A stretch of DNA of 52,545 nt, from NCBI GenBank assembly GCA_025358705.1, contig JANYII010000229.1, positions 1 through 52,545 on the forward strand. Reading direction: 5' to 3'. This document shows, piece after piece, positions 31,617 to 50,347 of the stretch. The first letter of the stretch is position 1; each line of letters starts with the position of its first letter. The notes under the pieces were generated by a model. It ran no database searches, was not told the origin of the DNA, and saw only the letters and a list, made by a program, of their open reading frames with translations. A program made the position numbers and the translations under genes. This DNA comes from Betaproteobacteria bacterium (GTDB lineage: Bacteria > Pseudomonadota > Gammaproteobacteria > Burkholderiales > SG8-39).

Positions 31617-32720
31617 TCAGCCGCGCGACAATTCGACCAGCCGCGCGCTTATTTCGCGCAGTGGCAGTATGTCGTGCACCGCACCCGCGGCGATGGCCTG
31701 CTTCGGCATGCCAAATACGACGCAGCTCGCTTCATCCTGGGCGATGTTGTGCGCGCCCCTCTGGCGCAACTCGAGCATCGCCTGCGCGCCGTCGGCCCCC
31801 ATGCCCGACAGCATCACGCCGATGCATTTGCCGCCGGCAGTCTGGGCAGCGGAGCGAAATAGCGGATCCACGGACGGCCGATGGCGATTGACCGGAGGGC
31901 CATCCGAAAGGCGGATGGTAAGGCGGCCCTGCTTGCGCTCGACCAGCAGGTGCCAGTCGCCGGGTGCGATGTAGGCGCTGCCGCTGGCCAGAAACTCGCC
32001 ATCGTCCGCTTCCTTCACGTGAATGCGGCATTGGGTATCGAGGCGCTGCGCGAAGGTGCGCGTAAAACCGCCCGGCATGTGCTGCGCGATCAGGATCGGC
32101 GGCATGTCCTCCGGCAGCGGCATCAGCACTTCGCGCAACGCTTCGACGCCGCCCGTCGAGGCGCCGATCACGATGGTCTTGTCGCTGGCCGTTCCCACGC
32201 TGCGCGCAAGCGGCGGCGGGGCCGCGCCTCTCGCGATGGATGGCAACGCCGCACCGCGGGGCGGCAGCGTCCGGTCGCCGACGGGCGTGCGCGCGACCCG
32301 GCGCGTCACCCGCGCGGCCGCCGCGGCGCGCACCTTCTCGGCGACCTCCTCCGTATAGGCGGCCAGGCTCTCGGCATCGCCGGCAACCGGCTTGGCGACG
32401 AAATCCACGGCGCCCAGCTCCAGCGCCCGCATCGTCACTTCCGCGCCGCGCGCGGTCAGCGACGACACCATGACGACAGGCAGCGGCCGGATGCGCATCA
32501 GTTTTTCGAGGAACTGCAGCCCATCCATGCGCGGCATCTCGACATCGAGCGTCAGCACGTCCGGCGTGGAAGCCTTGAGCCGCTCGATCGCGGCGATCGG
32601 GTCGCTCGCGACCGCGATCACGGTCATGTCCGGCTGCGAATTGATGGCGCGGCTCAGCAGGCCTCGGACCACCGCCGAGTCGTCGACCACGAGGACGCGG
32701 ATCTTGCCGGCGCCGTTCAT
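31617..32720 (-). CDS. cheB: Chemotaxis response regulator protein-glutamate methylesterase
   Basis: 367 aa. REC ([13 protein letters not shown]...[12 protein letters not shown]) plus a methylesterase domain ([23 protein letters not shown]). Confidence 0.93.
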
Positions 32721-33328
32721 TTCCGGCCCTTCGAGAAAAGCTCGAAATCCCCCGACGCGGTGACCTGGTTCATGCGCTCGAGGTAGTTGTGCTCGCGTTG
32801 TCCAACGGTGTCGTTGCTCAACGAGCGCAGCTTCTTCACCAGCACCTTGCCGGTCCTGGGGAAGAAATAGACCTTGCGCGGCCAGACATCGTAGAGGTCC
32901 CTGGCAACGACCGGGATGCGTTCCTCGCGCAGGAAATCGAGCACGAACTCGCCGTTCTGGTCGCCGACGTTCAGCGTGTCCAGCCCGTCGAGAACCTTGC
33001 CTCCGCCGAACACCTTTGCGACCAGCTTGGCGCGCGCGGCGCCGAGCTTGACCACCTGGTTGATGAGCAGTTCCATCGCGTACACGCCGAGCCGGGCCGA
33101 CACCGACGCCACGTCATTCACCGCGCGCGACTTCCCCGGCAGCATGAAATGATTCATGCCGCCGACGCACGCCGAGGCGTCCCAGAGGCAGGCGGAGACG
33201 CAGGAACCGAGCACGGTCACGATCATCACGTCGCGCCGCGCGGCGTAGCACTGCCCCGGCAGGATCTTGATCGCTTCGAGTTGGAAGCGCGTGTCGAAAT
33301 AGCGGGCGAGGACCGGCGCGTCGGTCAT
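32717..33328 (-). CDS. cheD: Chemoreceptor glutamine deamidase
   Basis: 203 aa. [14 protein letters not shown]...[10 protein letters not shown] motif. 4-nt overlap with cheB. Confidence 0.9.
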
Positions 33329-33340: not shown

Positions 33341-34204
33341 CTACGGGGCGCGCGGCGAGTCGACGGCACGCCGTTCATAGGACGTCTTGCCGCAGTTGCG
33401 CAGCGCCGCGTGCCCAGTGGCGTAACTCTCGGAATGGCCGACGAACAACAATCCGCCTGGCCGCAGCACATCGATGAACCGGTCGAGGACCTGGCGCTGC
33501 GATTCCTTGGAGAAATAAATCATCACGTTGCGGCAAAAGATCACGTCGAAGCGCTCGCCCGAGGGCCAATCGTTTCCCTGCAGGTTGCATGGCGAAAATC
33601 TTACCATCGCCTGCAGTTCCGGCCGGACCATGATGCGCCCCTCGTTCGGCCCGACGCCCTTCAGAAAAAATCGCCGCAGGCGCTCCGGATTCATGTTGTC
33701 GACCGCCTCGAGCGCGTAGGATCCGCGCCGCGCGCGGCTCAATACCTCGGTGTCGATATCGGTGGCGATGATTTCCGCCGGGCATTCCACCTCGCGTAGC
33801 GCGATCGCCGCTGAATAGGGCTCTTCGCCGGTAGAACAGGCGCTGCTCCAGACCCGCAGCCGTCCGCCGCCCGGCGCGCTGCGGCGGCGCGCCGCCGCGT
33901 AGGTGGCCAGCATCTCGAAGTGATGGCCTTCGCGGAAAAAAGACGTCAGGTTGGTCGTCAGCGCATTGACGAACTGCCCGCGCTCCACGCCGTCCGGCTG
34001 CTCGACCAGGTCAAGGTACTCGCCGAAATTGCCGATCCCGGTGCTGCGCAGGCGCCGAGCCAGGCGGTTGTAGACCATGTTCTCCTTGTGCTCCGCAAGC
34101 GCAATGCCCGCGAGCTTCGCGATCAGTTCACGCACGCGCCGGAAGTCACCCGGAGAGAAGGGATATTCCCGCTGCGCGCTGAACGCGTTCGCCGCAGATT
34201 TCAT
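33341..34204 (-). CDS. cheR: Chemotaxis protein methyltransferase
   Basis: Track ORF 33341..34222 (GTG start). I prefer the ATG at 34204 (MKSAANAF...). MVYNRLARRLR, TSFFRE, VWSSACSTGEEPYS, IFCRNVMIYF are CheR motifs. Confidence 0.92.
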   Translation of the reverse strand: MKSAANAFSAQREYPFSPGDFRRVRELIAKLAGIALAEHKENMVYNRLARRLRSTGIGNFGEYLDLVEQPDGVERGQFVNALTTNLTSFFREGHHFEMLATYAAARRRSAPGGGRLRVWSSACSTGEEPYSAAIALREVECPAEIIATDIDTEVLSRARRGSYALEAVDNMNPERLRRFFLKGVGPNEGRIMVRPELQAMVRFSPCNLQGNDWPSGERFDVIFCRNVMIYFSKESQRQVLDRFIDVLRPGGLLFVGHSESYATGHAALRNCGKTSYERRAVDSPRAP

Positions 34205-34247
34205 GGATTTTTTCTCAGGCACGGTACTGGATGAAGCGTGAAGAAGG

Positions 34248-35852
34248 CTAAAACTCCTCCCAGCCCTCTTCGCCGGCCTTGCCGGCCTTGCCCTCGCTGC
34301 GCTTCTCTTCCCGCCCGCGCGGCAGCTCGGCCACCGGCGCCTTCGCCTCCTGCCGGGCCAGTGCGGTCGCCTTCGGTTTCTTCTGCGCAGCCGCGGTTGC
34401 CTGCACCGCCGCCGGCGCCGCCGCCCTCCCCGCCTCGGCCAGCTTGAAGCTGCCCACCGCGCGCGTCAGCGTCGTCGCCTGCTCCTCCAGCGACGCCGAG
34501 GCCGCCGTCGCCTCCTCCACCATCGCCGCGTTCTGCTGCGTCACCTTCTCCAGCTGCTGCACCGTGTCGCTCACCTGCGTCAGGCTCTGCGACTGCTCCT
34601 GCGAAGCCGCCGAAATCTCCGCAATCAGCCCGTTCACCCGTTTCACCGACTCCACGATCTCGACCATCGTCTTGCCCGCCTCCGCCACCTGCTTCGACCC
34701 GGCGTCGATGCGCCCTACCGAGTCCGAGATCAGCTGCCGGATTTCCTTCGCCGCCGCCGCCGAGCGCTGTGCCAGGCTCCTCACCTCCGAGGCCACCACC
34801 GCAAACCCCCGCCCCTGCTCCCCCGCCCTCGCCGCCTCCACCGCCGCGTTCAACGCCAATATGTTCGTCTGGAACGCAATCCCGTCGATCACCCCGATGA
34901 TGTCGGCGATCTTCTTCGACGACGCCGAGATCCCCGACATCGTGCTCACCACCGCCCCCACCGCGTCGCCCCCGCGTGCCGCCACGTCCGAGGCCGCCGA
35001 AGCGTGCTGGCTCGCCTTTTTCGCGTTCTCCGCGTTCTGCGACACCGTCGCGGTCATCTCCTCCATCGAGGCCGCCGTCTGCTCCAGGCTCGAGGCCTGC
35101 TCCTCCGTCCGGCTCGACAGGTCCGCGTGGCCTTGCGCAATCTCCGCGCTGGACACCTGGATCGATCCGGCAGCCTCGCGGATGTTTCCCACGATCGGCC
35201 GCAGTTGCTGCTGCATGCGCGCCAGCGCCGACATCAGGCTGGTTGAATCTCCGGCGGCAATCCTCGCGTTGCGGGTGAGGTCGCCCGAGGCAATGCCGTC
35301 GGCGAACCCGACCGCTTCTTCCGGTTCGGCGCCGATCGTCTTCATCACCTGCCGCGCCGACCACAGCAGCATGCCGGCGACCACCGCCAGAACGGCCAGC
35401 ATGCCTCCGCCGATCGCGGACAACACCAGGTCGCGCGCCACCATTGCGCCGTGGTCCCGGAATCCCGCCTTGAGACGGCCTACGGTCTTGCCGGAGGCAT
35501 CCTTCATCTCGCGTTCCACCAGCAGCAGACCCGAAACATCCGCCGGCGTCTTCGCCACATCGGAAGTCAGCGACTTGCCATCGGCGTCAAAAAACTCGGC
35601 GAAAGCCACCTGCTTGTCGCGCGAAATTTCCTTGACGAACGTGCCGAGCGCGGTCAAGTCATAGTTGGTTACGTAGGGCGTGCCCACGTGCGCGAACATT
35701 TCCACGGTGTGCTCGGCCTGCTGCGCGAAACCCTCGCTCAAATGGCGCACGACCATGCTCGCGCCGATCGCCGCCGCCGCCACCATGACGAGGATCGACA
35801 GCGACAACGCCGGTACGAGCAGCCGCGCGCGCAGCGATTTGAACTTGAGCAT
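34248..35852 (-). CDS. Methyl-accepting chemotaxis protein ending in the GWEEF pentapeptide
   Basis: The track ORF starts at TTG 35861. An ATG at 35852 ([12 protein letters not shown]...) is more likely. Two TM segments, HAMP, hairpin [40 protein letters not shown]. The last five residues are G-W-E-E-F (34265..34251). Confidence 0.92.
34501..34580. repeat. 80-nt near-identical segment shared by two MCP paralogues (copy 1)
   Basis: 34501..34580 and 37301..37380 differ at 4 of 80 positions in a by-eye alignment. Both encode the ...[15 protein letters not shown]... C-terminal helix of the MCP signalling domain. Confidence 0.85.
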
Positions 35853-35863
35853 CTGCTTCAAGC

Positions 35864-37012
35864 TCAGAGCTTGTCGACCTGGACGGCCTTGCCGCCGCGC
35901 ACGACGGTGAGGAAGACATCCTTCGCGCCCTGGTGGCTGGTCGCGGAGAATCCGACCTTCAGGCCGCCGACGTCGGTATTGAGTCCTTCCAGGGCACCGA
36001 TGAAGCTCGCGCGCGTCAGATTGGCGCCCGCCTTCTTCAATGCTTCGACCAGCACCGCGGCGTCGACATAGCCTTCCAGCGACGAGTAATTTACCGGGCC
36101 GCCCTTCATGTCCTGGTGGAACTGCTTGACCACCGGCACCCCGCTGTCCGGCGAAGGCATCACCTGGGTGATGTAAACGCCGTCGCCGTCGGCACCCGCT
36201 TCGCGGATGAAATCGGCCGTGCCAATGAACGAGACCGTCATGAAACGCGCCTTGATGCCCTGGGCCTTGGCCTTTTTCACCACGGCGGAAAGCGACGCGT
36301 AGGTGCCGACGAAGATCACCGCATCCGGCGCCGCGGCCTTGATCTTGGCCAGCCCTTCGTCCACGTCGAGCGTGTTGCGCTTGTAGCGCGCCTCTTCCGC
36401 AACTTTCATGTCGCGCTTGTGCAACGCGCGGTTGACGCCTGCCTTGCCGGCCTCGCCGAATGCGTCATCCTGGATGAAAAGTGCGATCTTCTTGGCCCCG
36501 GCGTCCTTGGTCAGGCGCTCGACCATGACCTCGGTCTCGTCGAAGTACGACGCGCGCACGTTGAACACCCACTTGTTGACCGGGTTGCGCAGGAATTCCG
36601 CGCCGGTAAAAGGAAACAGGTACGGCACGCTGGCACGCGCCGCAAGCGGCACCGCCGCCGCCGAGGTCGGAGTGCCGACATAGCCGAACAACGCGAACAC
36701 CTTGTCCTGCTCGATCAGCGCCTTGGTCACGGCCGCGGTCTTTTCCGGCTCGTAACCGTCATCCTTGCTGACGAGGACAACCTTGCGTCCATTGACGCCG
36801 CCTGCCGCGTTGATCCGGGCCAGGTACGCATCGGCGCCTGCTTTCAGGTTGACCCCGAGACCGGACGCCGGCCCGCTCAACGCGTTTGCCATGCCGATGT
36901 GTATTTCCTTGTCGGTAACACCATCTTCGGCGAGCGCCGGCATCCCGAGCGCTGCGAGAACCACGCCAGCGCAAAGCAGGTTACGTCGTGTTCTGTTCAG
37001 GTTCTTTGTCAT
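35864..37012 (-). CDS. Periplasmic solute-binding protein, LivJ/Peripla_BP_6-like (branched-chain amino acid / amide type)
   Basis: Track ORF 35864..37060 trimmed to ATG 37012 (GGAGGATCAC-ATG). Signal peptide [28 protein letters not shown]. The mature start [25 protein letters not shown] is typical of the family. Its stop lies 11 nt before the downstream MCP ATG. Confidence 0.85.
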
Positions 37013-37083
37013 GTGATCCTCCAGGTAGCAAGTATGCGCGGCCAAAGGCCACGCCGACAATCAAAGATTGTTCGAATCCGCGC

Positions 37084-38772
37084 CTAGAACTCTTCCCAGT
37101 CTTGCTGCGCCGCACCGCCGCCTGCGGCGATGCGCTTTCCCGCGGGCTTGACCGGCGCGAGCGCCGGCCGCGGGTCGGCCTTCTTGCGCAACGGTGTCAC
37201 GGTCGCGGTGCGCAATGCGGCCGGCTTCGCCTGTCCCGCCAGTTTGAATATGGCGACCGCCTGGATTAGCGTCGATGCCTGTTCTTCGAGCGAACCGGCC
37301 GCCGCCGTCGCTTCTTCCACCATCGCCGCGTTCTGCTGCGTCACCTTTTCCAGCTGCTGCACGGTGTCGCTCACCTGCGTGATGTTCTGCGATTGCTCCT
37401 GCGAGGCCATCGCAATCTCGGCGACCAGGCTGTTCACGCCCTTCACGGCAGCGACGACCTCGGCGATGGTGCTGCCGGCCTGGGCCACCTGCTTCGAACC
37501 GGCATCCACCCGGGCCACCGACTCGGAAATAAGCTGCCGGATTTCCTTCGCGGCGCCGGAGGAGCGCTGCGCCAGGGTCCGGACTTCGCTCGCCACCACG
37601 GCGAAACCGCGGCCCTGCTCGCCCGCCCGCGCGGCTTCCACCGCCGCGTTCAGCGCCAGGATGTTGGTCTGGAACGCAATACCGTCGATGACGCCGATGA
37701 TGTCGGCAATCTTCTTCGAGGATTCCGAAATCCCGGTCATCGTGCCCACGACCTCGCCGACCGCCTGGCCGCCGCGCGCCGCCACTTCGGAGGCGCCGGA
37801 CGCAAGCTGGCTCGCCTTCTTCGCGTTTTCAGCGTTCTGCAGGACGGTCGCCGTCATTTCCTCCATCGATGCCGCCGTTTCCTCCAGCGACGACGCCTGT
37901 TCTTCCGTGCGGCTGGAAAGATCAGTATGCCCCTGCGCGATTTCCTGCGCCGCGGTATTCACGGTATCCGCGGCTTGCCGGACATCACCGGCGATGCGCC
38001 GCAGGCCTTCCTGCATCGCGGCAAGCGCGGACACCAGTTCCGCCACCTCGTCGCGTCCGCGTACTGCCAGGTCCTGCGTGAGATCGCCCGCCGCAATGCG
38101 CTTCGCGCCCTCGTGCGCCTCGCCGATCGGAACGAGGATCGAGCGCGCGATGAGGATCGCCGCGCCCAGGGCGACAATCACCCCGATCACCGCCATCGCG
38201 ACCATGAGAATGCGCGTGCGCTGCACGGCGTCGTCCGCGAAAACCTTGGCGACCTGGAGCTGCTTTTGCTGATAGGCGACGAAGGTTCGCACCGCTCCGA
38301 GATAGCTCTCGGCCACCGGCACCAGGTTCTTGTTCAGGTCTTCGTTGACATTTTCGCCGGCGCTCTTGCGCTTGAGCATGACAGTGCGCAGTTCGCGGTA
38401 ATGCGCGCGGACTTCGCTGATACCTGCGAGCAGGCGCTTTTCGTCCTCGGATACCGCGACCGTCTCGATCTGCTTCTGCAGTTCGGAAATCCTGGCCGAC
38501 GTCGCATCCATGTCCTTCCTCAGGCCCTCCGCGACCAGGCCGTCCAGGATCTGCATCGAATTGTGCGTGCGCACCAGGTTTACCGCGATGTTCTTTTCCC
38601 ATTGCTCGGCGAGCACCAGCTTGGCGGCATCCTGCGTGACGATTCGGTCGATGATGGCGCCCAGCTCGCCAAGCCGCCATACGCCGGCCATGGCGCTTGC
38701 GCCCACCAGCAGCAGCACCGCGCAAAACCCGATCGCCAGCCGGGTGCCAATTTTCAGATTCACGAGTTTCAC
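37084..38772 (-). CDS. Methyl-accepting chemotaxis protein ending in the DWEEF pentapeptide
   Basis: 562 aa with a GTG start (AAGGGA upstream). Two TM segments, helical periplasmic domain, HAMP, and the same hairpin core as 34248..35852. The last five residues are D-W-E-E-F (37101..37087). Confidence 0.92.
37301..37380. repeat. 80-nt near-identical segment shared by two MCP paralogues (copy 2)
   Basis: See 34501..34580. Direct repeats about 2.8 kb apart on the same strand, flanking the solute-binding-protein gene. Confidence 0.85.
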
Positions 38773-38792: not shown

Positions 38793-39308
38793 TCAATGTG
38801 TTGCCGCGTGCGCGGCGTCGCCGACCAGCTGCATGTCGCGGCTGGTCATCAGTTTCTCGATGTCCAGCAGGATCAGCATACGCTCCTCGAGCGTCCCGAG
38901 CCCAGTGATGAACTGCGTCTCCAGCGCCGCGCTGAACTCCGGCGCCGGCTTGATCTGCCCCGCCGAGAGCGACAGCACGTCCGACACCGCATCCACCACC
39001 GCCCCCACCACCCTCTTGGCCACGCTCAGGATGATCACCACCGTAAATTCGTCGTACTTCGCCTCGCCCAGGTTGAATTTCAGCCGCAGGTCCACGATCG
39101 GCACGATGATCCCCCTCAGGTTGATCACCCCCTTGATGAACGCCGGCGTATTGGCGATCGCCGTGGGCTGCTCCCAGCCACGGATCTCCTGCACCTTCAG
39201 GATCTCGATCCCATACTCCTCCGCGCCCAGCCGAAAACTCAGGAATTCGCGCAATTCCCCGGCACCCGATTGCGAATGCGTTGCTCCTCCTGCCATGCCG
39301 ACACTCAT
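38793..39308 (-). CDS. cheW: Chemotaxis coupling protein
   Basis: 171 aa. [23 protein letters not shown]...[14 protein letters not shown] is the CheW-like domain. Confidence 0.93.
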
Positions 39309-39332: not shown

Positions 39333-41543
39333 TCAAAGCCTGGCGCGCGCGCCCTTGCCAGCAAGCTGCACGATCTGCGCGAGGTCCAGGATCAACGCGA
39401 CACGCCCGTCGCCCATGATGGTGGCGCTCGAGACGCCCGGCATCCTGCGGAAATTGGCTTCCAGGCTCTTCACCACCACCTGCTGCTGGCCCAGCAGTTC
39501 GTCAACCAGCAGGGCCGCCTTGCCGCCCTCGGACTCGACGATCACGGCGATGCCGCCCTGCTCGGGCGCGGCGCCGTTGCCCTCGCGGAATACTTCGCTC
39601 AGTCGAACCACCGGCAGAAATTCGTCCCGAACGCGAAGAGTGTGGCCCTGGCCGGCAATGCCGGCGATATCCCCCGCCTGGATGCTCCGCGACTCGATCA
39701 CCGCCGACAGGGGCAGCACGTAAGTGGCCGGGCCGACCGCCACCGACATCGCCTCCATGATCGCGAGCGTCAGCGGCACGCTGACGGTGACCGTGGTGCC
39801 GGCACCTTCGCGCGAATGCAGTCCGACTTTTCCGCCGCCCAGCACCTGGATGTTCCGGCGCACCACGTCCATGCCGACGCCCCGGCCAGAAACATCCGTG
39901 ACTGTCTCGGCGGTGGAAAAGCCCGCCTCGAAAATGAGCTGCCATACCTCGTCGTCGTCCGCGTTCGGGTCGATGCGTATGCCGCGCTCGGCGGCGCGCT
40001 CCAGGATGCGCTTGCGATTCAGTCCCTTGCCGTCGTCGCGCACCTCGATCACGATGCTGCCGCCCTTCTGGCTCGCGCTCAGCCAGATCATTCCGCAACG
40101 CGGCTTGCCCGCGGCCTCACGCTCCGCCGGCGACTCGATGCCGTGGTCGATCGAATTGCGCACCAGATGCGTCAACGGGTCGGTGATCTTCTCGATCAGG
40201 CCGCGGTCGAACTCCGTCGTCTCGCCCGAAACCTTGAGTTCCACCTCCTTGCCGAAGCGCTGCGAGAGCTCGCGCGCCAGGCGCGGGAAGCGCGTGAAGA
40301 CGGTCGAGATCGGCACCATGCGGATCGACATCACCGCTTCCTGGAGGTTGCGCGCATGCCGCCCGAGATCGACAAGGCCAGTGGCGTAGCGCGAATCGCT
40401 CTCCTCCTGGCGCTGCTGCTGCGCAAGCATGGCCTCGGTAATCACCAGTTCGCCGACCAGGTTCACCAGCAGGTCGACTTTCTCGATGCTGACGCGGATC
40501 GAGGCCGCTTCGGCCAGCGCCTGCATCCCGCGTTCCGAGTCGCGCCGGCCGCGCCGCTCGGCGCCCGGCACGACGTCGCTCGCGCGCCTGCCGAACAAGT
40601 TCGGCTCGGCGGCGGGATCATCGGTCGCACGCCGTCCGGGGCCGCGCGGCTTGGCGTCCGATACGGCCTCTTGCGGCTCGCCCCCCCCGCGCCGAGCGCG
40701 AAATTTTTCCGGCGATACGAACGAATCAAACGAGGAATCGCCGGATTCCGCCGGCGGCGCAGCCGCGGGCGCGGCGACCGTCGCTTTCTGCTTCTTCTTC
40801 CATTCCGCCGGGTCGAAAAAAATCTCGCCGCCGTGGTCGTCGGCGACAATTGCCTTCGCCGGTGCCGCGGGTGCCGCCTTGTCGACGCGAATTGCGTCGG
40901 CCGGCACCACCAGCGCGAGCACGCTGCGCAGGTCGGCCTCGGCGCCGCTCAACTCGACCTCGAATCGGATCTCGCCGCCAGCGACGTTGCTCGTCGCGAC
41001 GGCTTCCACCTTGCCCATCTCGCCGAGGCCGGAGAGCATCAAGTCCAGTTCCGCGCTGTCGATCGGGGCCGCGAGCGGTCCCAGGCGCACGGCGTAGCGT
41101 CGCGGAGCCGAGGCCGGCCGGCCGCCCACGTCGCGTTCCATCAGCGCGCGCAATTCCTGTTCGATCGCGGCCGAGTCCGGCGCCTCCTGCACGGTGCCGC
41201 GCCGGAACGCGACCTGCATCTTGACCACGTCGCCGGCGCGCAGCATGAGATCGAGCGCTTCCTCGGTCAGCTGGCGCTCGCCCTTGCGCAGGTCGTCCAG
41301 CAGGTTCTCCAGGACGTGCGTGACCGAAGTGATCTCGCTGAATCCGAGCATGCCGCTGGTGCCCTTGATCGAGTGCGCGGCGCGGAATATCGCGTTCAGG
41401 TCCTCGGCGTCGGGCGCCGCCTGGTTCAGGCGCAGCAGGACGCTTTCGATGGCGGCGACGTGCTCGTCGGCCTCCTCGAAGAAAATGGCGCGGAAATCGG
41501 AGGTATCGCCGAACGCGCCGGAACCGGAACTGGATGAAGACAC
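39333..41543 (-). CDS. cheA: Chemotaxis histidine kinase
   Basis: 736 aa with a GTG start. P1 Hpt (FRAAHSIKGTSGMLGF), long Ala/Pro/Arg-rich linker, dimerisation domain plus HATPase (HLVRNSIDHGIE, DDGKGL, GRGVGMDVV), C-terminal CheW-like domain. No fused REC. Confidence 0.95.
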   Translation of the reverse strand: MSSSSSGSGAFGDTSDFRAIFFEEADEHVAAIESVLLRLNQAAPDAEDLNAIFRAAHSIKGTSGMLGFSEITSVTHVLENLLDDLRKGERQLTEEALDLMLRAGDVVKMQVAFRRGTVQEAPDSAAIEQELRALMERDVGGRPASAPRRYAVRLGPLAAPIDSAELDLMLSGLGEMGKVEAVATSNVAGGEIRFEVELSGAEADLRSVLALVVPADAIRVDKAAPAAPAKAIVADDHGGEIFFDPAEWKKKQKATVAAPAAAPPAESGDSSFDSFVSPEKFRARRGGGEPQEAVSDAKPRGPGRRATDDPAAEPNLFGRRASDVVPGAERRGRRDSERGMQALAEAASIRVSIEKVDLLVNLVGELVITEAMLAQQQRQEESDSRYATGLVDLGRHARNLQEAVMSIRMVPISTVFTRFPRLARELSQRFGKEVELKVSGETTEFDRGLIEKITDPLTHLVRNSIDHGIESPAEREAAGKPRCGMIWLSASQKGGSIVIEVRDDGKGLNRKRILERAAERGIRIDPNADDDEVWQLIFEAGFSTAETVTDVSGRGVGMDVVRRNIQVLGGGKVGLHSREGAGTTVTVSVPLTLAIMEAMSVAVGPATYVLPLSAVIESRSIQAGDIAGIAGQGHTLRVRDEFLPVVRLSEVFREGNGAAPEQGGIAVIVESEGGKAALLVDELLGQQQVVVKSLEANFRRMPGVSSATIMGDGRVALILDLAQIVQLAGKGARARL

Positions 41544-41565: not shown

Positions 41566-41931
41566 TCAGTCGATGAACTGGCGGACGATGGAGAGCATCT
41601 TTTCCGGATCGAACGGCTTGGCCATCCAGCCGGTCGCGCCGGCCTCGCGGCCCTTCGCCTTCAGCTCGGCGCCCGTTTCGGTCGACAGCACGATGATCGC
41701 GACGTTGTCGTACGCGGAGATGCCGCGCAGCAGGCGCACCAGTGTGACGCCGTCCGTGCCCGGCATGTTGTGATCGGTGACGACCAGGTCGAATACCTGC
41801 TTCTTCGCCTTCTCCAGCGCTTCGTCGCCGTCGCCGGCTTCCTCGACGCTGTAGCCCGCACCCTGCAGCACGGCAACGACCATCTTGCGCATCGAGCGCG
41901 TGTCATCGACAACCAGTATCGACTTTCCCAT
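41566..41931 (-). CDS. cheY: Single-domain chemotaxis response regulator
   Basis: 121 aa with RBS AAGAGGAA. ILVVDDTRSMRKM...VVTDHNMPGTDG...GWMAKPF. Confidence 0.9.
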   Translation of the reverse strand: MGKSILVVDDTRSMRKMVVAVLQGAGYSVEEAGDGDEALEKAKKQVFDLVVTDHNMPGTDGVTLVRLLRGISAYDNVAIIVLSTETGAELKAKGREAGATGWMAKPFDPEKMLSIVRQFID

Positions 41932-41963: not shown

Positions 41964-42842
41964 TCAGCCGCCGCCCGCGCGCGCCGACGGCACGAATTTG
42001 GCGATGACTTCGAGCAGGTGGTTCTCGTCGACCGGCTTGGTAAGGTATTCATCGCAACCTGCAAGCGAGCCGCGCAGCATGTCGAACGGCGAACTGCGGC
42101 TGGTCAGCATGACCACCGCGGTGCGCTTGACGGCCTGCTTGTTGCCCTTGATCAGCTTGCACACCTGGTAGCCGTCGATGCCGGGCAGCACGACATCGAG
42201 GAACACGCAGGTGTACTCGTTGGTGCCCGTGAGGCCGACCGCCTGTTCGCCGGTCTCCGCGAAATCGACATTGAAACCGTAGGGCGCGAGACGCGTTTCC
42301 ATGAATTTGCGCACGGTGGCGTTGTCATCCACCACCAGCACCGCATCCGCCGGGCGCCGCGGACGTGCCGCCGCCGGAGCAGGCCTGGCCGGGGCACCGG
42401 CCCCGGGATTGGTGCGCGCCGCCGCGCCGGGCGGCGGCGTACGCGAACCGGTGCCGGTAGAGGTCCGCTGCAATACCATGGTCTTCTCGTTCTCCGACGT
42501 GGCGGCAGGCGCGCCACCCTGGATCGCGTCGTCGAACGACTGCAGCACCCGTGCCCACTGCAACGGCCGCGACAGCAGCGCCAGCCCGGTGTTGCGGTCC
42601 GACGTGCCGATCAGCACCACCGGCGCCGCAACCCTGCCGCGGATCGCGGTGAATTCCGCCATCGCGGTATCGTTGTCCGCGTCCACCAGGTAAAGATCGG
42701 TGCGCTGCGCCGAGCTTGGCTCGCGCAGCAGGAAGCTCGGGTCGCGGCGTGCCGCCAGTCCGAAGATGCTGGACAGCATCAGGCGCTCGGTTTCGTTGAA
42801 CCCGATCACGTCCACCAGGTAGCTGGATTCTTCATTCGCCAT
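41964..42842 (-). CDS. Two-domain receiver protein: N-terminal receiver-like (probably degenerate) domain, Pro/Ala-rich linker, C-terminal canonical REC
   Basis: 292 aa. The C-terminal REC has VLVVDDNATVRKF...VFLDVVLPGIDG...EYLTKP. The N-terminal ~105 aa have the beta-alpha periodicity and an LYLVDAD strand but lack the N-terminal acidic pair. Confidence 0.75.
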   Translation of the reverse strand: MANEESSYLVDVIGFNETERLMLSSIFGLAARRDPSFLLREPSSAQRTDLYLVDADNDTAMAEFTAIRGRVAAPVVLIGTSDRNTGLALLSRPLQWARVLQSFDDAIQGGAPAATSENEKTMVLQRTSTGTGSRTPPPGAAARTNPGAGAPARPAPAAARPRRPADAVLVVDDNATVRKFMETRLAPYGFNVDFAETGEQAVGLTGTNEYTCVFLDVVLPGIDGYQVCKLIKGNKQAVKRTAVVMLTSRSSPFDMLRGSLAGCDEYLTKPVDENHLLEVIAKFVPSARAGGG

Positions 42843-42868
42843 CAGTCAACCTCGATCACGCAGCGACA

Positions 42869-44965
42869 TCATTGGGATGGTACCCCAAGCTTCATCTGGA
42901 TCGACTGGCTGGTCCAGATGCGGTCGATCTCCGCAAGCAGGGCGTCAGCATCCGGGAAGCGGTCCTTGGGGCGCTTGGCGAGCAGGCCGTCGATCAGCGG
43001 CTGGTAGTCCTCGAGTTCCGCAGGCAGCCTGGGGATCGGCGCGATGATGTGCTGCGACAGGATCTCGAGGATGGTCTCGCCGGTGAACACCCTTTTGCCG
43101 GTGAGCATTTCGTAGAAGATCACGCCCAGGCTGTACAGGTCGGCGCTCGGCCCCACTTCACCGGCCTGCGCCTGCTCGGGCGATATGTAGTGCGGCGTGC
43201 CGAGCACTTCCCCCTGGATCGTATGCCCGCTGGCGTGCTCGGTGCGCTTGGCTACGCCAAAATCGGTCAGCACCAGCACGCCTTCGGTGCGCAACATCAG
43301 GTTCGCGGGCTTGATGTCGCGATGCACGATGCCGCGCGAGTGGATCGCGGCCAGGCCGCTGGCCGCCTGCGACAGCAGCGACAGCGCCTGGCGCCGCGAC
43401 AATCCCCGGTCGATGACTTCGCGCAGGCTGCCGCCGGCCAGGTGCTCCATGGCGATATAGGCCATTTCGTCGCCGAAGCCCTGGTCGTAGATGCGCACCA
43501 CGTGCTCGTGATCGATCGCGGAGAGGATGGCGCATTCCTGGAAGAAGCGCTGCCAGAGTTCCTCGTCCTCCTTGCGGCGCACCTTGAGGATTTTCAGTAC
43601 CGCCTTGCGGCCGTGCACCTCGTCGTCGGCGAGGAACACCGTGGACATGCCGCCCTCGCCGATTTTCTCGAGCACCTTGTAGCCGCGGATGCGCAGTTCT
43701 TCCCCGCCGGGCGCCGCGGCGAAAGCCGCGGTCATGTCGCCGATCAGGTGCAGATCCTGGTCGAGCGCCGCCTTCGAGGCTTCTGCCGTGGCGCGCGCGT
43801 TCTCGATCAAGACCGCGCCCGCACCGGCGGGCAGCGTCATGTCGAGATCCGGCGCCGGCGGTTCCCGATCGGCATCCATGGCAATCACGTGGCCCACCGA
43901 TACGTGCGCGTCGCGGCCCAGCACCTCCACTTCGCGCATCTCGGCGACCACGAACCCCGGGCCCGCGGCTTCGATCGTCGTGCTGCTCGCGACAATCGGC
44001 CAGCGCAGTTCCTTGCATTTCGCTTCGAGCCGCGATGCCACATTGACCGTGTCGCCCACCGGCGTGAGGTCGCCCACGCCGCCCACCGCGAGGCGGAAGA
44101 ACATCACCTCCCCGGTGTGCACGCCCACGCCGACGTTGAACTCCGGCAACTCGGCCATTTCGTAGCGCGAATTCAGCCAGCCGCGGAACTCGCGCGCCAC
44201 CTTGAGGATGCCGAGCGCGGCGCGCAGCCCCGCCGCCGCATGCGCCTGGACTTCGTTCGGCGAGTCATAGCCGAATACCGCCATCATGCCGTCGCCCATG
44301 AACTTCATCACGCGCCCGCCATTGGCGAGAACCGGCTGGCAGGCTTCGCGCAGGTAGGCGGTCAGGAATTCGGCAACCGCCGTCGCCGGCAGGCGCTCCG
44401 AAATGCGGGTGAAGGAGCGGATATCGGTGAACAGCACCGTCTGCATGATCAGGCGGCCGGTCTGGTTCTTGAACGCCGCTTCGTCGGGCTGCTGCAGCTT
44501 GTCGCGCTCCGCGCGGTTCTTGTAGCGGTCGCGCAGCTCGCCGGTCTGCGACAGCACGTGGCTGGAGAAGATCTCGGTCAGCCGTGCGCGCTTCTCGAAC
44601 ACCTGGTTCACCGCATCGATCAGTTCCTGGCGCTTGAACGGCTTGGAGATGAAATCGTCGGCGCCCATCTGCATCGCCTTGCGCACATTTTCGCGCTCGT
44701 CGGCGGAAGTCAGCAGGATGAACGGCAGCGTCACGGTCGCCGGATCGGCGCGCACGCGCTGCAGGACCTCGAAGCCTTCCATGTCGGGCATGTTGACGTC
44801 GCACACCACCGCGTCCGGCTGGGCGGAATGCGACATTTCCAGCCCCGCGACGCCGCCCGAGGCCGTCACCACTTCGAAGCCCGACACCGTGAGCACGCGC
44901 GATACCGCGAGGAGAATGCTCTCGTCGTCGTCGATCAGCAGGATTTTCTTGCGGGATGCCGTCAT
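42869..44965 (-). CDS. REC - class III adenylate/guanylate cyclase - Hanks-type Ser/Thr protein kinase triple fusion
   Basis: 698 aa. REC: KILLIDDDESILL...VVCDVNMPDMEG...DFISKPF. Cyclase homology domain: VLFTDIRSFT, KFMGDGMMAVFG, VGVHTGEV, GDTVNVASRLE. Kinase: IGEGGMSTVF, AVLKILK, HRDIKPANLM, DFGVAK, GTPHYISPEQ. Confidence 0.9.
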   Translation of the reverse strand: MTASRKKILLIDDDESILLAVSRVLTVSGFEVVTASGGVAGLEMSHSAQPDAVVCDVNMPDMEGFEVLQRVRADPATVTLPFILLTSADERENVRKAMQMGADDFISKPFKRQELIDAVNQVFEKRARLTEIFSSHVLSQTGELRDRYKNRAERDKLQQPDEAAFKNQTGRLIMQTVLFTDIRSFTRISERLPATAVAEFLTAYLREACQPVLANGGRVMKFMGDGMMAVFGYDSPNEVQAHAAAGLRAALGILKVAREFRGWLNSRYEMAELPEFNVGVGVHTGEVMFFRLAVGGVGDLTPVGDTVNVASRLEAKCKELRWPIVASSTTIEAAGPGFVVAEMREVEVLGRDAHVSVGHVIAMDADREPPAPDLDMTLPAGAGAVLIENARATAEASKAALDQDLHLIGDMTAAFAAAPGGEELRIRGYKVLEKIGEGGMSTVFLADDEVHGRKAVLKILKVRRKEDEELWQRFFQECAILSAIDHEHVVRIYDQGFGDEMAYIAMEHLAGGSLREVIDRGLSRRQALSLLSQAASGLAAIHSRGIVHRDIKPANLMLRTEGVLVLTDFGVAKRTEHASGHTIQGEVLGTPHYISPEQAQAGEVGPSADLYSLGVIFYEMLTGKRVFTGETILEILSQHIIAPIPRLPAELEDYQPLIDGLLAKRPKDRFPDADALLAEIDRIWTSQSIQMKLGVPSQ

Positions 44966-44977
44966 GCGCGCTCGGGT

Positions 44978-46483
<1,506 letters not shown>

Positions 46484-46513
46484 GGGCTATCGTGTCTTCA
46501 ACTCGTCCAGTGA

Positions 46514-46849
46514 TCAGTTGCTTGCATTCAACCATGACCCAAGATACCCCGTAATGCGCGCCGTCTCACGGTCGATGTCCGCGACCGCATTCGCGATCAA
46601 CCCGGCATCTCCCGTCCGTACTGCTTCCTCGGCCCGCTCGCAGGCTTCCGCGAGCGGCATTGCGCCGACCATCTGGCAGGCGCCCTTCAACCGATGCGCC
46701 CAGCGCAGGACGCCCTTGCTGTCGTTCCTGGAGAGCGCGACTCCCAGCGCGCTCGCGTCCCCGGGGCAGGAGACGCAGAACTGCCGCAATACTACTCCGA
46801 CCGCCTCCTGGTCATCTGACAGCAGCCTGTCGAGGACCGTGTGGTCCAT
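46514..46849 (-). CDS. Stand-alone histidine phosphotransfer (Hpt) domain protein
   Basis: Track ORF 46514..46957 trimmed to ATG 46849, because G/C content at third codon positions drops in the 46850..46957 extension. The AHRLKGACQMVGA motif (HxxKG) sits in a ~110-aa helical protein. Alternative starts at 46915 and 46957. Confidence 0.7.
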   Translation of the reverse strand: MDHTVLDRLLSDDQEAVGVVLRQFCVSCPGDASALGVALSRNDSKGVLRWAHRLKGACQMVGAMPLAEACERAEEAVRTGDAGLIANAVADIDRETARITGYLGSWLNASN

Positions 46850-47081
46850 GGGGCCGGCGTCGCCTTGCGCGCCAGCTCGCCGCTGCGCGCCTTCCCGATT
46901 CGATGTGCGAGGCATGTGAAAGGTCTCGATGTCCAGTGTCCGGTGTCTGCTCGGCACGCAACCATTGCGGCCAAAGAGCTATTCTGGCCGCGCGCCGGCC
47001 ATTTTCCAATGCGCGCGGACGCCACCGGTGCGTTGGCACAACCGGCCACGGTCGTGTAGGTAAATCCGCTACACTCGCGCC

Positions 47082-48299
47082 ATGAAGATCTTCGCGGTCG
47101 ACGACGATCCGATCACGCTCGCGCTCGTCGCGGAAGTGCTGCGCAGCGCCGGCCACGAGGTCACCACCTGCGGCTCCAGCCGCGACGCCCTGCGCGACAT
47201 CCCGCGCGCGCAGCCGGACTGCGTGATCAGCGACATCATGATGCCGGAGATGGATGGCTTCGAGCTGATACGCGAGCTGCGGCGGCGGCCGGAGCTCGCG
47301 GCACTGAAGATCGTCGTGCTGTCGACCAAGTCCTACGATTTCGACCGGCGCCGTGCCAAAGAACTGGGTGCCGACGGCTACCTCATCAAGCCGATCGAGC
47401 GCACCACCTTCGTCCAGTCGATCGTGGAAATCGTGTCCGAGGACGTACTCGTCACATACTGGGGCGTGCACGGCACGCTGCCGGTTCCCGGCGTGCGCAC
47501 GCTGCGCCGCGGCGGCAACACGCCCTGCGTCAGCGTCGAGGTGGGCGGCGAGCCGCTCTACGTGTTCGACTGCGGCTCGGGTATCAAGGGACTGTCCGAC
47601 CGGCTGCTCGCGATGCAGCAGGGGCGGATCACGGTGCGTATTTTCCTGTCGCACCCACACTGGGACCACATCAATACCATCCCCTTCTTCGCGCCGCTCT
47701 ACGCCCCGGGAAACCAGATCGAGATCCACGGCCCCTACCAGGGCGACCTGTCGATCGAGCAGGTGGTCAGCGCGCAGATGGAGAGCGTCTATTTCCCCGT
47801 GACCATCCGCGAATTCGGCGCGCATCTCGTATTCCGCGACCTGCGCGAGGAGAGCCTTTCTTTCGGCCCAGTGCGCATCGACACGATGCTGCTTAGCCAC
47901 CCCGGATACTGCCTTGGCTACCGCCTCACATGCCGCGGCCGCAAAGTTTGCTACATCACGGACAACGAACTGTTTCTGCGAGGCGATCCGCACCGGGACG
48001 AACACTACCTGGAGCGCCTCGCCGATTTCGTGCGCGGCGCCGACGTGCTGATCACCGACACGACCTATCGCGACCACGAGTACCCGGCCAAGATCGGCTG
48101 GGGCCACTCCTGCGTCAGCGAGGTGGCCGAACTCGCGGCACGGGCGCAGGTGAAGCGATTGCACCTGTTTCATCACGATCCGGACCAGTCGGACGACGAC
48201 ATCGACCTCAAGCTGGCCGAGACGCGTGCCGCGCTGGCGAAGCTCGATGCCAGCGTGGAATGCGACGCGCCCGCGGAAGGTACCGACCTGGTGCTGTAG
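47082..48299 (+). CDS. REC - metallo-beta-lactamase-fold hydrolase fusion
   Basis: 405 aa. REC: KIFAVDDDPITLAL...VISDIMMPEMDG...GYLIKP. MBL fold: FDCGSG, LSHPHWDHINT (HxHxDH), LLSHPG, ITDNE, HSCV..., LFHHDP. Confidence 0.85.
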   Translation: MKIFAVDDDPITLALVAEVLRSAGHEVTTCGSSRDALRDIPRAQPDCVISDIMMPEMDGFELIRELRRRPELAALKIVVLSTKSYDFDRRRAKELGADGYLIKPIERTTFVQSIVEIVSEDVLVTYWGVHGTLPVPGVRTLRRGGNTPCVSVEVGGEPLYVFDCGSGIKGLSDRLLAMQQGRITVRIFLSHPHWDHINTIPFFAPLYAPGNQIEIHGPYQGDLSIEQVVSAQMESVYFPVTIREFGAHLVFRDLREESLSFGPVRIDTMLLSHPGYCLGYRLTCRGRKVCYITDNELFLRGDPHRDEHYLERLADFVRGADVLITDTTYRDHEYPAKIGWGHSCVSEVAELAARAQVKRLHLFHHDPDQSDDDIDLKLAETRAALAKLDASVECDAPAEGTDLVL

Positions 48300-48475
48300 G
48301 AGTTACTGCGCCGCAGCGTAGGAAAACTCCCTACGCATGCACTGCCCGATTCCGTCTGTGGCCATCGACGCCGGGGGCATAACATCCGGCAGTGAAGAAT
48401 GCGCGCAACCCTGCCCGGCGTGGGGGTCCATTGGAGGAACAACCGCATGCCGCGGCACCCGGCGGCGAACCCCTC

Positions 48476-50347
48476 ATGGCCGAACGCCTGCTTGCGGCAT
48501 TCGAGCATCTGAGGGAATCCATCGTCCTTACCGACCCCGAGGACCGTTTTCTTCTCACCAACCGTGCGTTCCGGGAGCTAAACCGCAACGTCGCACATGC
48601 CATTCGGCCGGGCCTGAAATTCGAGGACTACATGCGCGCCGGCATCGCCGCGGGCAATTACCCGGATGCCATCGGCAGGGAAGAGGAATGGCTCGCGGCC
48701 CGGCTCGCGGAGCGGCGCAACCCGGGGAAACCCGTGGAGCGCCAGCGCAGCGGCGGACGCTGGTTCATGATCGACGACCGGCGGCTGCCCGACGGCTGCA
48801 CGATCCGGTTCGGCACCGAGATTACGGAGCGCAAGCGCGCCGAGGCTTCGTTGAACGAGCGCAATCGCGAGCTGCAGCTGGTGATCGACAGCGTCCCGGT
48901 GATGATCACGCGGCTCGACCGGGACGAGCGCTTCCTTTTCGCCAACCGTGCCTATACCAGGCTGATGGAGCAACCGATCGAGGATATTGTCGGCCGCCGC
49001 GTTGCGGACGTGATGCCACCCGGGATTTACGCGCAGATCAAGCCGGCGCTCGACCGCGCGCTGTCCGGCGATCCGGTGTCGATCGAACGGCTGCAGGTGC
49101 GCTCGAATGGCGAACTGGTCGAAGTCGAAGGACGCTACATTCCCGATGTCGACATAGCGGGCCGCGTCATCGGCATGTTCGCGGTGCACCGCGACGTCAC
49201 CGCCGAGCGGCGGGCGCGGGAGTCCCTGGCGAAGAGCGAAGCCCGTTTCCGCGGCCTCGCGGCCCTGTCCTCGGACTGGTTCTGGGAGCAGGACGCGCAG
49301 TTCCGCTACATCTACATCTCTGAAGACGCCGATGCCCGCGGCGCCATAGGCATGAAGCTGCGCGCGGGAAAAACGCGCTGGGAGTTGCCCTCGACCGGCG
49401 TGACTGAAGCACAGTGGGCAGCGCACCGGGCGCAACTCGAGGCACATCAGGTATTCCACGATTTCGAGGTCGGACGCCCTGGACCGAATGGCGAAACGAC
49501 CTGGGTCTCGGTGAGCGGAGAGCCGATATTCGACACCCAGGGCAATTTCACCGGATATCGCGGGATCACCCGCAACATGACCGAGGCAGTGCGCTCGCGC
49601 GCACGCATCGAGCGCATGAACGCCGAGCTAGAGGAGCGCGTGGAAACGCGCACCGCCGAACTGCGCGCGGCAATGAAGGAACTGGATGCCTTCACCTATT
49701 CGGTGTCGCATGACCTGCGCGCACCGATCGGGGCGGTCAGCGGTTTTGCGCACCTGCTGCGCAGCGCCGAGGCCGAGCGACTGAGCGAGGATGGCCAGCG
49801 CCTGCTCGGCTTCATCGAGCACAACGCGGAGCGCATGACCCGCCTGATCGAGGGCCTGCTGCGCTTCTCGCGGCTCGGGCGCAGCGAGTTGCGGCGCTCG
49901 CGCGTGTCGATGAACGGCCTGGTTGGAGAATCGCTGATGGATTTCGTGGATGAAGTCGCGCGCGCGAACATCAGCGCGGCGGCGATGCCCGACTGCAACG
50001 GCGATCCGGCACTGCTAAGCCAGGTCTGGTCCAACCTGCTGGGCAATGCCCTCAAATACTCGCGCGGCGCCAACCCGCCGCGCGTCGATGCCGGCTGGGA
50101 CGTGGAGCGCAATGCCTACTACGTGCGCGACAACGGCATCGGCTTCGACATGGCCTATTCCGGCAAGCTGTTCGGCGTCTTCGAGCGGCTGCACGCGGAA
50201 TCCGAATTCGAAGGCAGCGGCATCGGCCTCGCTATCGCGGAGCGCATCGTCCGGCTGCACGGCGGGGCCATCTGGGCCGACGCCGCGCCCGGCCACGGCG
50301 CCACCTTCTGGTTCACGGTGCCGTCGGCCGAAAAATGGGAGAATTGA
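48476..50347 (+). CDS. Cytoplasmic multi-PAS sensor histidine kinase (HisKA + HATPase_c)
   Basis: The track ORF starts at 48392. I prefer ATG 48476 (MAERLLAAFEHL...) because G/C content at third codon positions is low over 48392..48475. About three PAS-like repeats, H-box FTYSVSHDLRAPI, N-box LGNALKYS, G-boxes DNGIGF and GSGIGLAI. No TM segment. Confidence 0.85.
   Translation: MAERLLAAFEHLRESIVLTDPEDRFLLTNRAFRELNRNVAHAIRPGLKFEDYMRAGIAAGNYPDAIGREEEWLAARLAERRNPGKPVERQRSGGRWFMIDDRRLPDGCTIRFGTEITERKRAEASLNERNRELQLVIDSVPVMITRLDRDERFLFANRAYTRLMEQPIEDIVGRRVADVMPPGIYAQIKPALDRALSGDPVSIERLQVRSNGELVEVEGRYIPDVDIAGRVIGMFAVHRDVTAERRARESLAKSEARFRGLAALSSDWFWEQDAQFRYIYISEDADARGAIGMKLRAGKTRWELPSTGVTEAQWAAHRAQLEAHQVFHDFEVGRPGPNGETTWVSVSGEPIFDTQGNFTGYRGITRNMTEAVRSRARIERMNAELEERVETRTAELRAAMKELDAFTYSVSHDLRAPIGAVSGFAHLLRSAEAERLSEDGQRLLGFIEHNAERMTRLIEGLLRFSRLGRSELRRSRVSMNGLVGESLMDFVDEVARANISAAAMPDCNGDPALLSQVWSNLLGNALKYSRGANPPRVDAGWDVERNAYYVRDNGIGFDMAYSGKLFGVFERLHAESEFEGSGIGLAIAERIVRLHGGAIWADAAPGHGATFWFTVPSAEKWEN

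Follow-up and report, generated by a model that had tools for sequence, protein, structure and literature searches.

Many bacteria hold several chemosensory systems whose outputs have yet to be assigned (PMC9239204; for Che2, PMC7698151). The Che2 pathway of Pseudomonas aeruginosa, for example, is stated to have no assigned function, and its receptor McpB/Aer2 carries the pentapeptide GWEEF, which recruits CheR2 and CheB2 (PMC7698151). Other systems have been tied to specific outputs. The Wsp array, one of the systems with alternative cellular functions (ACF), is believed to act on a nucleotide cyclase fused to a receiver and so to yield a second messenger, not to control the motor (PMC6391922), and the same source cites the Pil-Chp chemosensory system of P. 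aeruginosa as tied to a class III adenylate cyclase and cAMP. The Che3 systems of Rhodospirillum centenum (CheA3/CheS3/CheY3) and Myxococcus xanthus are reported to serve development, not motility (PMC3868531, PMC3147164), and the Frz system of M. xanthus has a dual CheY-like protein, FrzZ, as its output (PMC10782961). Fusions of kinases with cyclases are also known, M. xanthus Pkn2 among them (PMC1262709). Here, we analysed a 52,545-nt stretch of DNA (hereafter the window) from an uncultured soil Betaproteobacteria bacterium (Burkholderiales; SG8-39; assembly GCA_025358705.1, contig JANYII010000229.1, 65% G+C), in which an array of che genes is headed by a module encoding two Hanks-type Ser/Thr kinases. 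Three proteins make up this head module: a Hanks kinase fused to a pseudo-cyclase (the first kinase), another Hanks kinase (the second kinase), in this case a receiver (REC)::cyclase::kinase triple fusion, and a two-domain protein, termed xREC, that pairs a predicted pseudo-receiver with a receiver. We give roughly an even chance to the reading that the array forms one chemosensory operon whose conserved kinase head module is driven by CheA, the outputs being cAMP and Ser/Thr phosphorylation.

A preliminary description of this DNA had placed four open reading frames (ORFs) on the minus strand, and ORF listing and translations confirmed each of them at its exact coordinates and strand: a stand-alone histidine phosphotransfer (Hpt) protein (46514..46849), the pseudo-cyclase kinase (44978..46483), the triple fusion (42869..44965) and xREC (41964..42842). 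Their placement directly upstream of cheY-cheA-cheW also stood, as Pfam identified CheY, a complete CheA and CheW as the next genes. Recomputed gaps were 30, 12, 26 and 32 nt, exactly as given before, followed by one of 22 nt. In agreement with the claim that these gaps are free of terminators, a scan placed a terminator-like hairpin in none of them; the nine sites that it returned across 29-48.5 kb were all intragenic, against 11.7 expected by chance. The array proved longer than first noted, extending over 15 genes and ~17.3 kb of one strand, from 46849 down to 29527. After CheW it continues with a first methyl-accepting chemotaxis protein (MCP1), a periplasmic binding protein, MCP2, CheR, CheD, CheB, a 215-aa receiver protein (REC215) and a soluble MCP-like protein. 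Intergenic spacing is -4 to 32 nt across all 15 genes, and -4 to 25 nt past CheW. The 232-nt divergent intergenic region upstream of the Hpt gene (46850..47081) is the likely promoter region of the array; no match to the sigma-70 consensus was found across 29-48.5 kb, a result that is uninformative at 65% GC. From the spacing, together with the synteny, we infer that the genes of the array are co-transcribed.

When metagenomes were scanned with a profile for the pseudo-cyclase domain, 74 loci were recovered; with those collected earlier, this gives 80 loci that carry the domain. These were annotated by mapping the proteins of the window onto them, and their pseudo-cyclase kinases match at 44-95% identity. 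Counting only loci whose contig extends far enough downstream, the second kinase was present in 29/29, xREC in 24/24 and CheY together with CheA in 22/22, so that the degenerate paralogue came out as che-linked in every locus open to the neighbourhood check that had been proposed for it. The pseudo-cyclase kinase, the second kinase, xREC, CheY and CheA are the invariant parts of the arrangement. Conservation in dozens of loci over this range of identity puts the arrangement far beyond chance, and the head kinases and the che genes form one conserved unit.

For the triple fusion, linkage to che genes depends on the distance of the homologue. Those of at least 49% identity that we examined all adjoin che genes, as the preliminary description had anticipated, whereas relatives at 41-46% do not. 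Three loci at 56-64% identity (L001, L002 and L088) and one at 49% (L087) encode, in this order, the pseudo-cyclase kinase, the triple fusion, xREC, CheY, CheA and CheW/MCP, and CheR-D-B also follow in L001, L002 and L087, where the contigs are long enough. The two kinase genes overlap by 4 nt in both L001 and L002. At 53% identity, in L086, a triple-fusion homologue lies among MCP and CheW genes without CheA. A contig scan by full-length alignment was dominated by generic kinase patterns, and the relatives among the matches listed were at most 43% identical, so that its bearing on cultured carriers is slight.

The loci can be divided into three types. Type A, to which the window belongs (at least 74% identity), has the Hpt gene upstream and a divergent gene for a REC-metallo-beta-lactamase protein (REC-MBL), and type B (51-61%) has a REC215-like gene upstream. 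In type C (44-50%), which includes the cultured Caenimonas terrae as well as Ramlibacter, the latter as metagenome-assembled genomes (MAGs) only, the second kinase has neither receiver nor cyclase. As the cyclase is missing from the second kinase in some loci, cAMP cannot be the universal output. The earlier proposal of cyclic nucleotide (cNMP) synthesis is supported by the intact cyclase residues of the window's protein, but the cyclase is not part of the core and is absent from the Ramlibacter/Caenimonas subtype. The module is widespread in soil Burkholderiales metagenomes, and since a simpler form is present in cultured C. terrae, genetics and biochemistry are feasible.

Three further observations were made in these loci. 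A 147-aa stand-alone cNMP-binding protein, which may be a cAMP receptor, is encoded beside the cluster in four cyclase-bearing loci, namely L001 (3788-4231), L116, L096 and L098. In L128 (1-3900) and L131 (1-8400), the kinase-headed operon has another complete che cluster (CheY, CheA, MCP, CheW, CheR, CheD and CheB, at 34-49% identity) as its divergent neighbour, so that two paralogous che systems are kept next to each other in these genomes. Finally, a gammaproteobacterial MAG (L012, 4181-13858) has genes for an xREC-like protein, CheW, MCP, CheA-REC and a REC-Hanks kinase, followed by one for a tyrosine carboxypeptidase-like protein of the MATCAP family. Its cluster is an independent, unrelated instance of che genes combined with a kinase gene, and we counted it in favour of a che system with a kinase module as its output.

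The second kinase of the window has, in this order, a receiver (residues 8-120; Pfam Response_reg, E=2.1e-28), a class III cyclase-homology domain (CHD; ~176-353; Guanylate_cyc, E=9.9e-13, 48.5 bits against a cut-off of 21.9) and a Hanks-type kinase domain (429-670; Pkinase, E=8.4e-51). Conservation was assessed in 114 full-length homologues of 46-100% identity. Throughout this set, the receiver residues D12, D13, D56, T86 and K108 are conserved and the kinase residues K458, E477, H548-R-D550, K552, N555 and D568-F-G are invariant. The cyclase residues D181, D225, K221, T301, N308 and R312 are retained in 106 of the 114 homologues, the CHD being degenerate in three, and all six align with identical residues in CyaC (1wc0, E=7.7e-17). 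In class III cyclases, the Lys/Thr pair denotes ATP as the substrate. The REC::CHD::kinase architecture claimed at the outset thus has the catalytic residues of its receiver, cyclase and kinase all intact, and the protein bears what reads as the signature of a catalytically competent adenylate cyclase.

The first kinase gave a different picture in its N-terminal half. Pfam returned no cyclase match for this protein and only a Pkinase match (E=3e-45) in the C-terminal half, where the kinase domain spans residues 245-491, behind the pseudo-cyclase domain (~1-235). However, the protein can be aligned from one end to the other with the CHD and kinase portion of the triple fusion (35% identity, E=5e-81; E=2e-10 for the CHD portion alone), which bears out the earlier assignment of a degenerate CHD, and the profile of the pseudo-cyclase family matches solved class III adenylate cyclases (CyaC 1wc0, 5e-8; Cya2 2w01, 3e-6). 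In the window's protein, the six cyclase positions read R, D, M, R, E and A, so that the residues for catalysis are not in place. The same pattern recurs in 119 homologues, where the first Asp is replaced by Arg, the second Asp is kept, Lys becomes Gln or Met, Thr becomes Arg or His, Asn becomes Glu and Arg becomes hydrophobic. At the same time, the domain has invariant residues of its own across these homologues (R11, D55, E138 and R141). That it is uniformly degenerate yet holds such residues implies a conserved non-catalytic role, and it offers a natural case for how degenerate cyclase domains regulate their partners. The catalytic K/E/D/N/D residues of the first kinase are likewise invariant in the 119 homologues. 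Both kinases of the module carry the Gly-rich loop, VAIK, the alpha-C Glu, HRDxKxxN, DFG and SPE motifs, and they score 155 (first kinase) and 173 bits (triple fusion) with Pkinase against a cut-off of 31.7. The first kinase can thus be described as a conserved pseudo-cyclase on an apparently active kinase. By residue logic, given the composite-site architecture, a CHD:pseudo-CHD heterodimer would have no complete active site, which leaves homodimers of the triple fusion as the only form able to make cAMP.

The third component of the module, xREC, had been described as a dual receiver, and this holds for one of its two domains. The C-terminal domain (168-280; Response_reg, E=5.4e-24) is a receiver by sequence, with D172, D173, D216, T247 and K269 all invariant, and no other piece of the array is conserved as well: its identity across loci is 79-98%, against 45-75% for the other proteins. 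The N-terminal ~105 residues have no receiver profile similarity, and we rejected them as a receiver recognisable by sequence (hhalign probability 0.2%, no Pfam match). This beta/alpha domain (~7-108) is conserved across homologues; its acidic pocket is missing, and only D54 and R92-P93 recall receiver motifs. In an AlphaFold2 model it is predicted as beta/alpha with a pLDDT of about 80, and the best full-length Foldseek matches of the model are RcsC ABL+REC, PleD and ShkA, which have tandem pseudo-receiver/receiver arrangements. The model thus suggests that the N-terminal domain is a pseudo-receiver. The linker between the two domains is variable, low in complexity and rich in Ala, Pro and Thr. 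It contains a motif, EKTMVLRRT (~118-128), with a Thr and an Arg that are invariant in many homologues, and this could be a kinase target or a docking site. As a universal kinase target the motif was rejected, since several type B loci and all those of type C lack it or have a different sequence in its place.

The stand-alone Hpt protein (111 aa), the first gene of the array, was recognised by Pfam at E=3e-15 (56.7 bits against a cut-off of 24.6). Its phospho-accepting His sits in AHRLKG, aligned with AHSFKG of 7c1i, and its nearest matches are relay Hpt domains (RcsD/TorS, 7c1i, RcsD/YojN 1sr2 and ArcB). With its HxxKG motif, the protein has the features of a relay-type Hpt. An origin as a paralogue of the CheA P1 domain was rejected, as there is only a 21-aa local match to P1 and the relay Hpts are closer. 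Being relay-type and not a copy of P1, the protein points to a receiver-to-Hpt-to-receiver step. The earlier suggestion of a route via the Hpt needs changing in view of this relay character and of the distribution of the gene, which precedes the kinase genes in every type A locus and is confined to the close relatives of the window. In other subtypes, its place is taken by a 200-aa REC protein or a REC-Hpt fusion. REC215 (30958..31605, minus strand), with ~90 N-terminal residues that received no assignment and a receiver identified by Pfam, has a homologue as the first gene of type B loci, directly 5' of the pseudo-cyclase kinase. The recurrence of REC215-like and REC-Hpt genes in the operons of other subtypes fits a relay.

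The remaining genes of the array, all on the minus strand, encode the che core, in the order cheY-A-W-mcp-R-D-B. The CheY-like single-domain receiver (121 aa; 41566..41931; Response_reg, E=5.5e-27) scores 71.7 bits with the model of E. coli-type, motor-type CheY (NF007901), against a cut-off of 189. CheA (736 aa; 39333..41543) has P1 (Hpt), a long linker, P3, P4 and P5 according to Pfam (Hpt, H-kinase_dim, HATPase_c and CheW), and matches the E. coli-type model NF007835 end to end with 621 bits, under the 793-bit cut-off. Pfam finds no C-terminal receiver in it, so it is not the hybrid CheA of ACF systems. CheW (38793..39308; E=2e-39) scores 228 bits with NF007903 against a cut-off of 260. MCP1 (37084..38772) is a transmembrane receptor with a 4HB sensor, HAMP and signalling domain by Pfam, and MCP2 (34248..35861) matches MCPsignal at 1.8e-52. 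Both end in an xWxxF pentapeptide, DWEEF in MCP1 and GWEEF in MCP2, the latter identical to that of McpB/Aer2. CheR (33341..34222; Pfam CheR and CheR_N; 303 of 435 bits with the E. coli-type model), CheD (32717..33328; Pfam, E=2.8e-28) and CheB (31617..32720; REC and CheB_methylest; 454.6 bits with NF001965 against 293), whose gene overlaps cheD by 4 nt, follow. The array closes, after a 24-nt gap, with the soluble MCP-like protein (29527..30933), in which MCPsignal covers residues 90-266 only (E=6e-22). In this protein, the short signalling domain is followed by a ~170-aa C-terminal domain that has no Pfam match. The array thus contains CheA, CheW and three MCPsignal proteins, together with the CheR methyltransferase, the CheD deamidase and the CheB methylesterase.

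To place the three transmembrane receptors, we compared them with E. coli profiles. Residues 187-523 of MCP1 align with residues 191-527 of the Tar profile, an equal span; residues 155-502 of MCP2 align with Tar 194-543, and residues 154-515 of a further receptor, MCP4, with Tsr 164-525. As the spans are equal or at most two residues apart, there are no heptad-sized indels, which by this indirect test points to the 36-heptad length class. Overall, the che core looks E. coli/Che2-like (F7) rather than Wsp-like, a class assignment made with NCBIfam proxies and not with the class hidden Markov models of MiST. Pfam scans of selected ORFs of the window found no cheZ, mot or fli genes.

The gene between the two receptor genes (35864..37060, minus strand) encodes a LivJ-like periplasmic solute-binding protein (Peripla_BP_6, Pfam E=1.1e-68) and lies 2 nt from MCP2; it is absent in most related loci. 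Its position next to the receptors suggests that ligand sensing is mediated by a binding protein. Upstream of the array and divergent from the Hpt gene, the REC-MBL gene (47082..48299, plus strand; Pfam, and RNase Z by NCBIfam) is kept at the same position in all type A loci with enough upstream DNA, at 92-96% identity. It is a possible further member of the array, its membership being uncertain. The same uncertainty applies to a PAS-PAS-HisKA-HATPase histidine kinase (48392..50347, plus strand; Pfam), which is a candidate alternative phosphodonor. Elsewhere in the window, an unlinked receptor at 26961-28598 has no xWxxF tail, unlike MCP1 and MCP2. A few kb from the array, a separate pair on the plus strand (24139-26318) encodes a REC-PAS-HisKA_3-HATPase kinase and then a REC-LuxR regulator, and an unrelated redox cluster on the minus strand (13425-20124) encodes a molybdopterin oxidoreductase (1036 aa), a 706-aa poly-ferredoxin with multiple 4Fe-4S domains and a DUF3306 protein.

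How might such an array work? In the scheme that we favour, the phosphotransfer pairs, the pairing of CHDs, the enzyme activities and the targets are all proposed. The receptor array, with one receptor probably served by the co-encoded periplasmic binding protein, would set the activity of CheA. Phosphorylated CheA would then phosphorylate the receivers of the operon, that is CheY, xREC and CheB, and would reach D56 of the triple fusion either directly or through a relay from REC215 or CheY to the relay-type Hpt. Phosphorylation of the fused receiver would alter the dimer state of the cyclase domain, and this change would switch cAMP synthesis and juxtapose the kinase domains for phosphorylation of their activation loops. 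The pseudo-cyclase kinase may pair with the triple fusion through the cyclase-homology domains. Since the resulting heterodimer would have no complete active site, this partner would act as a regulator or scaffold that brings in one more kinase. Two outputs would follow, cAMP and the phosphorylation of target proteins on Ser/Thr, with the Thr-rich linker of xREC as one candidate target. The wiring proposed in the preliminary description, from a CheA/MCP array to the receiver of the triple fusion, is plausible but only partly supported, with che linkage and intact residues on one side and the PAS-coupled and otherwise non-che context of the 41-46% relatives on the other. A stronger version, in which the two Hanks kinases form a hetero-oligomer, joined by their catalytic/degenerate pair of cyclase domains, that is under direct control of the chemoreceptor array, so that His-Asp input is turned into cAMP and Ser/Thr phosphorylation at once, is one that we put forward tentatively and hold to be somewhat doubtful. 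If true, it would be a previously unrecognised output class for systems of the E. coli/Che2 type, and a clue to the role of those that do not serve motility.

Several observations weigh against a CheA-driven kinase output, and they bear in part on the donor of the triple-fusion receiver; we infer the direction of signal flow from gene linkage. In one relative of 46% identity (L003), translational coupling links the triple-fusion gene to one for a PAS-HisKA kinase and no che genes are present, and relatives at 41-42% (Ramlibacter humi and a Pseudomonadota MAG) stand amid other, unrelated genes. Because relatives at 41-46% are not che-linked, and one of them is coupled to a PAS histidine kinase, a non-CheA donor is a live alternative. 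Even among che-linked loci, L001, which is of type B, has a PAS-GAF histidine kinase and a REC protein directly 5' of the kinases in the same operon, along with the cNMP-binding protein, and PAS kinases lie near 5-6 of the 14 receiver-type loci with at least 4 kb of upstream DNA, as opposed to 0/6 kinase-only loci. The PAS-PAS kinase of the window is itself only 1.5 kb from the cluster, and the receiver may thus have a donor other than CheA. The main rival explanation builds on these facts: a PAS-type kinase would feed the triple-fusion receiver, and the kinase pair would be an input or side branch that merges a second signal with che signalling, with xREC, CheA or the receptors as possible substrates of its Ser/Thr phosphorylation. 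The Thr-containing motif conserved in many xREC linkers is consistent with such a branch, and a precedent is given by M. xanthus Che3, which is reported to work jointly with the CrdS/CrdA two-component system (PMC3147164). We nevertheless regard it as unlikely. In eight of the 14 receiver-type loci, no PAS kinase is encoded within 4-10 kb, and no histidine kinase other than CheA is a constant part of the loci; the subtype without a kinase-borne receiver keeps the whole arrangement; and, in the alignment, the alpha-1 region of the receiver differs strongly between the che-linked and the kinase-linked clades. On the side of possible targets, the EKTMVLRRT motif is not kept in all subtypes, type C loci having ...TLPLG... 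instead, and this too counts against our scheme, as does the finding of no PP2C phosphatase in Pfam scans of selected ORFs of the window, none of them a search aimed at PP2C.

The cAMP branch faces difficulties of its own. The second kinase has neither REC nor CHD in 17 loci and is a REC-kinase without CHD in two more, and a homologue of the cNMP-binding protein was not found in the window by tblastn. With the CHD of the first kinase degenerate in 119/119 homologues and that of the triple fusion in 3/114, and with an incomplete active site predicted for the heterodimer by residue logic, it could be argued that the cyclase-homology domains are dimerisation or regulatory modules only, Ser/Thr phosphorylation being the sole output and cAMP absent or incidental. 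This is improbable in our judgement, as the retention of all six catalytic residues in 106/114 triple fusions is hard to explain without selection for catalysis, and cNMP-binding proteins adjoin four cyclase-bearing loci. A final objection comes from the che core, which resembles a class that also runs flagellar chemotaxis in Comamonadaceae; being E. coli-like and having CheD, as in the flagellar F7 cluster of Comamonas (PMC6391922), it might belong to an ordinary flagellar chemotaxis operon with the kinase genes as unrelated upstream passengers. Synteny makes this very unlikely, since the kinases and the che genes stay together in 22/22 loci that span 44-95% identity, with neighbouring genes overlapping by 4 nt or lying no more than 32 nt apart. 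The missing cheZ, mot and fli genes in the window, a CheY far under the motor-type model and the second complete che cluster in the L128 and L131 genomes all point the same way.

Set against what has been described, the array appears to be a conserved new variant of an alternative-output chemosensory pathway, in an arrangement not described before. In the accessible literature, outside which many subscription papers lie, our searches gave no example of a che pathway that includes genes for Hanks kinases or class III cyclases, in line with the earlier claim of an undescribed system. The accompanying statement that class III cyclases and Hanks kinases are otherwise separate signalling currencies was too strong, as kinase-cyclase fusions have been catalogued and the Pil-Chp chemosensory system controls cAMP. 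Within the genera at hand, the che systems named in the genome papers of Ramlibacter number just two and are ascribed to gliding or twitching, and a link of the Ramlibacter tataouinensis CheA Rta_19330 to the cluster was not found in the genome paper and its supplements. The Flm pathway of Comamonas was rejected as a match, since it is of the type IV pilus (Tfp) class and has single-domain receivers only.

Individual parts of the array have counterparts in several known systems. TOMM kinase/cyclase proteins (TIGR03903), Pkn2 and animal receptor guanylyl cyclases also combine a kinase or kinase-homology domain with a class III cyclase in one chain. Here, however, the cyclase precedes the kinase and a receiver comes first, and none of those fusions is known to be che-linked; the TIGR03903 model gives 163.4 bits against 705.75, with the domain order reversed. 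Unlike the animal kinase-homology domain, both kinases of the array look active. The pairing of a catalytic with a degenerate cyclase domain recalls the C1/C2 pseudo-heterodimer of mammalian adenylate cyclase. FrzZ and PleD/RcsC resemble xREC as two-domain receiver-type proteins in or with a signalling cluster, but the N-terminal domain of xREC differs from theirs in having neither receiver sequence similarity nor an acidic pocket. The Che3 cascades share extra receivers, a second histidine kinase and a phosphorelay-like flow with the array, and differ in their histidine-kinase or NtrC-type outputs and in having no known Ser/Thr kinases or cyclases.

Of the systems with a cyclase, Pil-Chp differs in that CyaB is a separate membrane protein under indirect control via PilG, in its multi-Hpt ChpA and Tfp class, and in having no Hanks kinase. 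The likeness to Wsp lies in an array thought to act on a receiver-fused nucleotide cyclase; a receiver-fused enzyme encoded in the cluster, as in ACF systems, is present here in the triple fusion, which would serve as output. Wsp, however, uses the REC-GGDEF protein WspR and the CheA-REC protein WspE, whereas the array has a class III cyclase with a kinase and a CheA without REC, and its receptors are of Tar/Tsr length. In the core, the likeness is to P. aeruginosa Che2, which also has CheD and a CheA without a receiver, and whose cluster order, cheY2-cheA2-cheW2-mcpB/aer2-cheR2-cheD-cheB2, we take to be the same as that of the array. Che2 is not known to include genes for a kinase, a cyclase, an Hpt protein or xREC, and a single soluble PAS-haem receptor stands where the array has transmembrane 4HB receptors and a binding protein. 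The head module would thus join His-Asp phosphotransfer, cyclic nucleotide synthesis and Ser/Thr phosphorylation in one operon, and offers a concrete, testable output for a Che2-like core.

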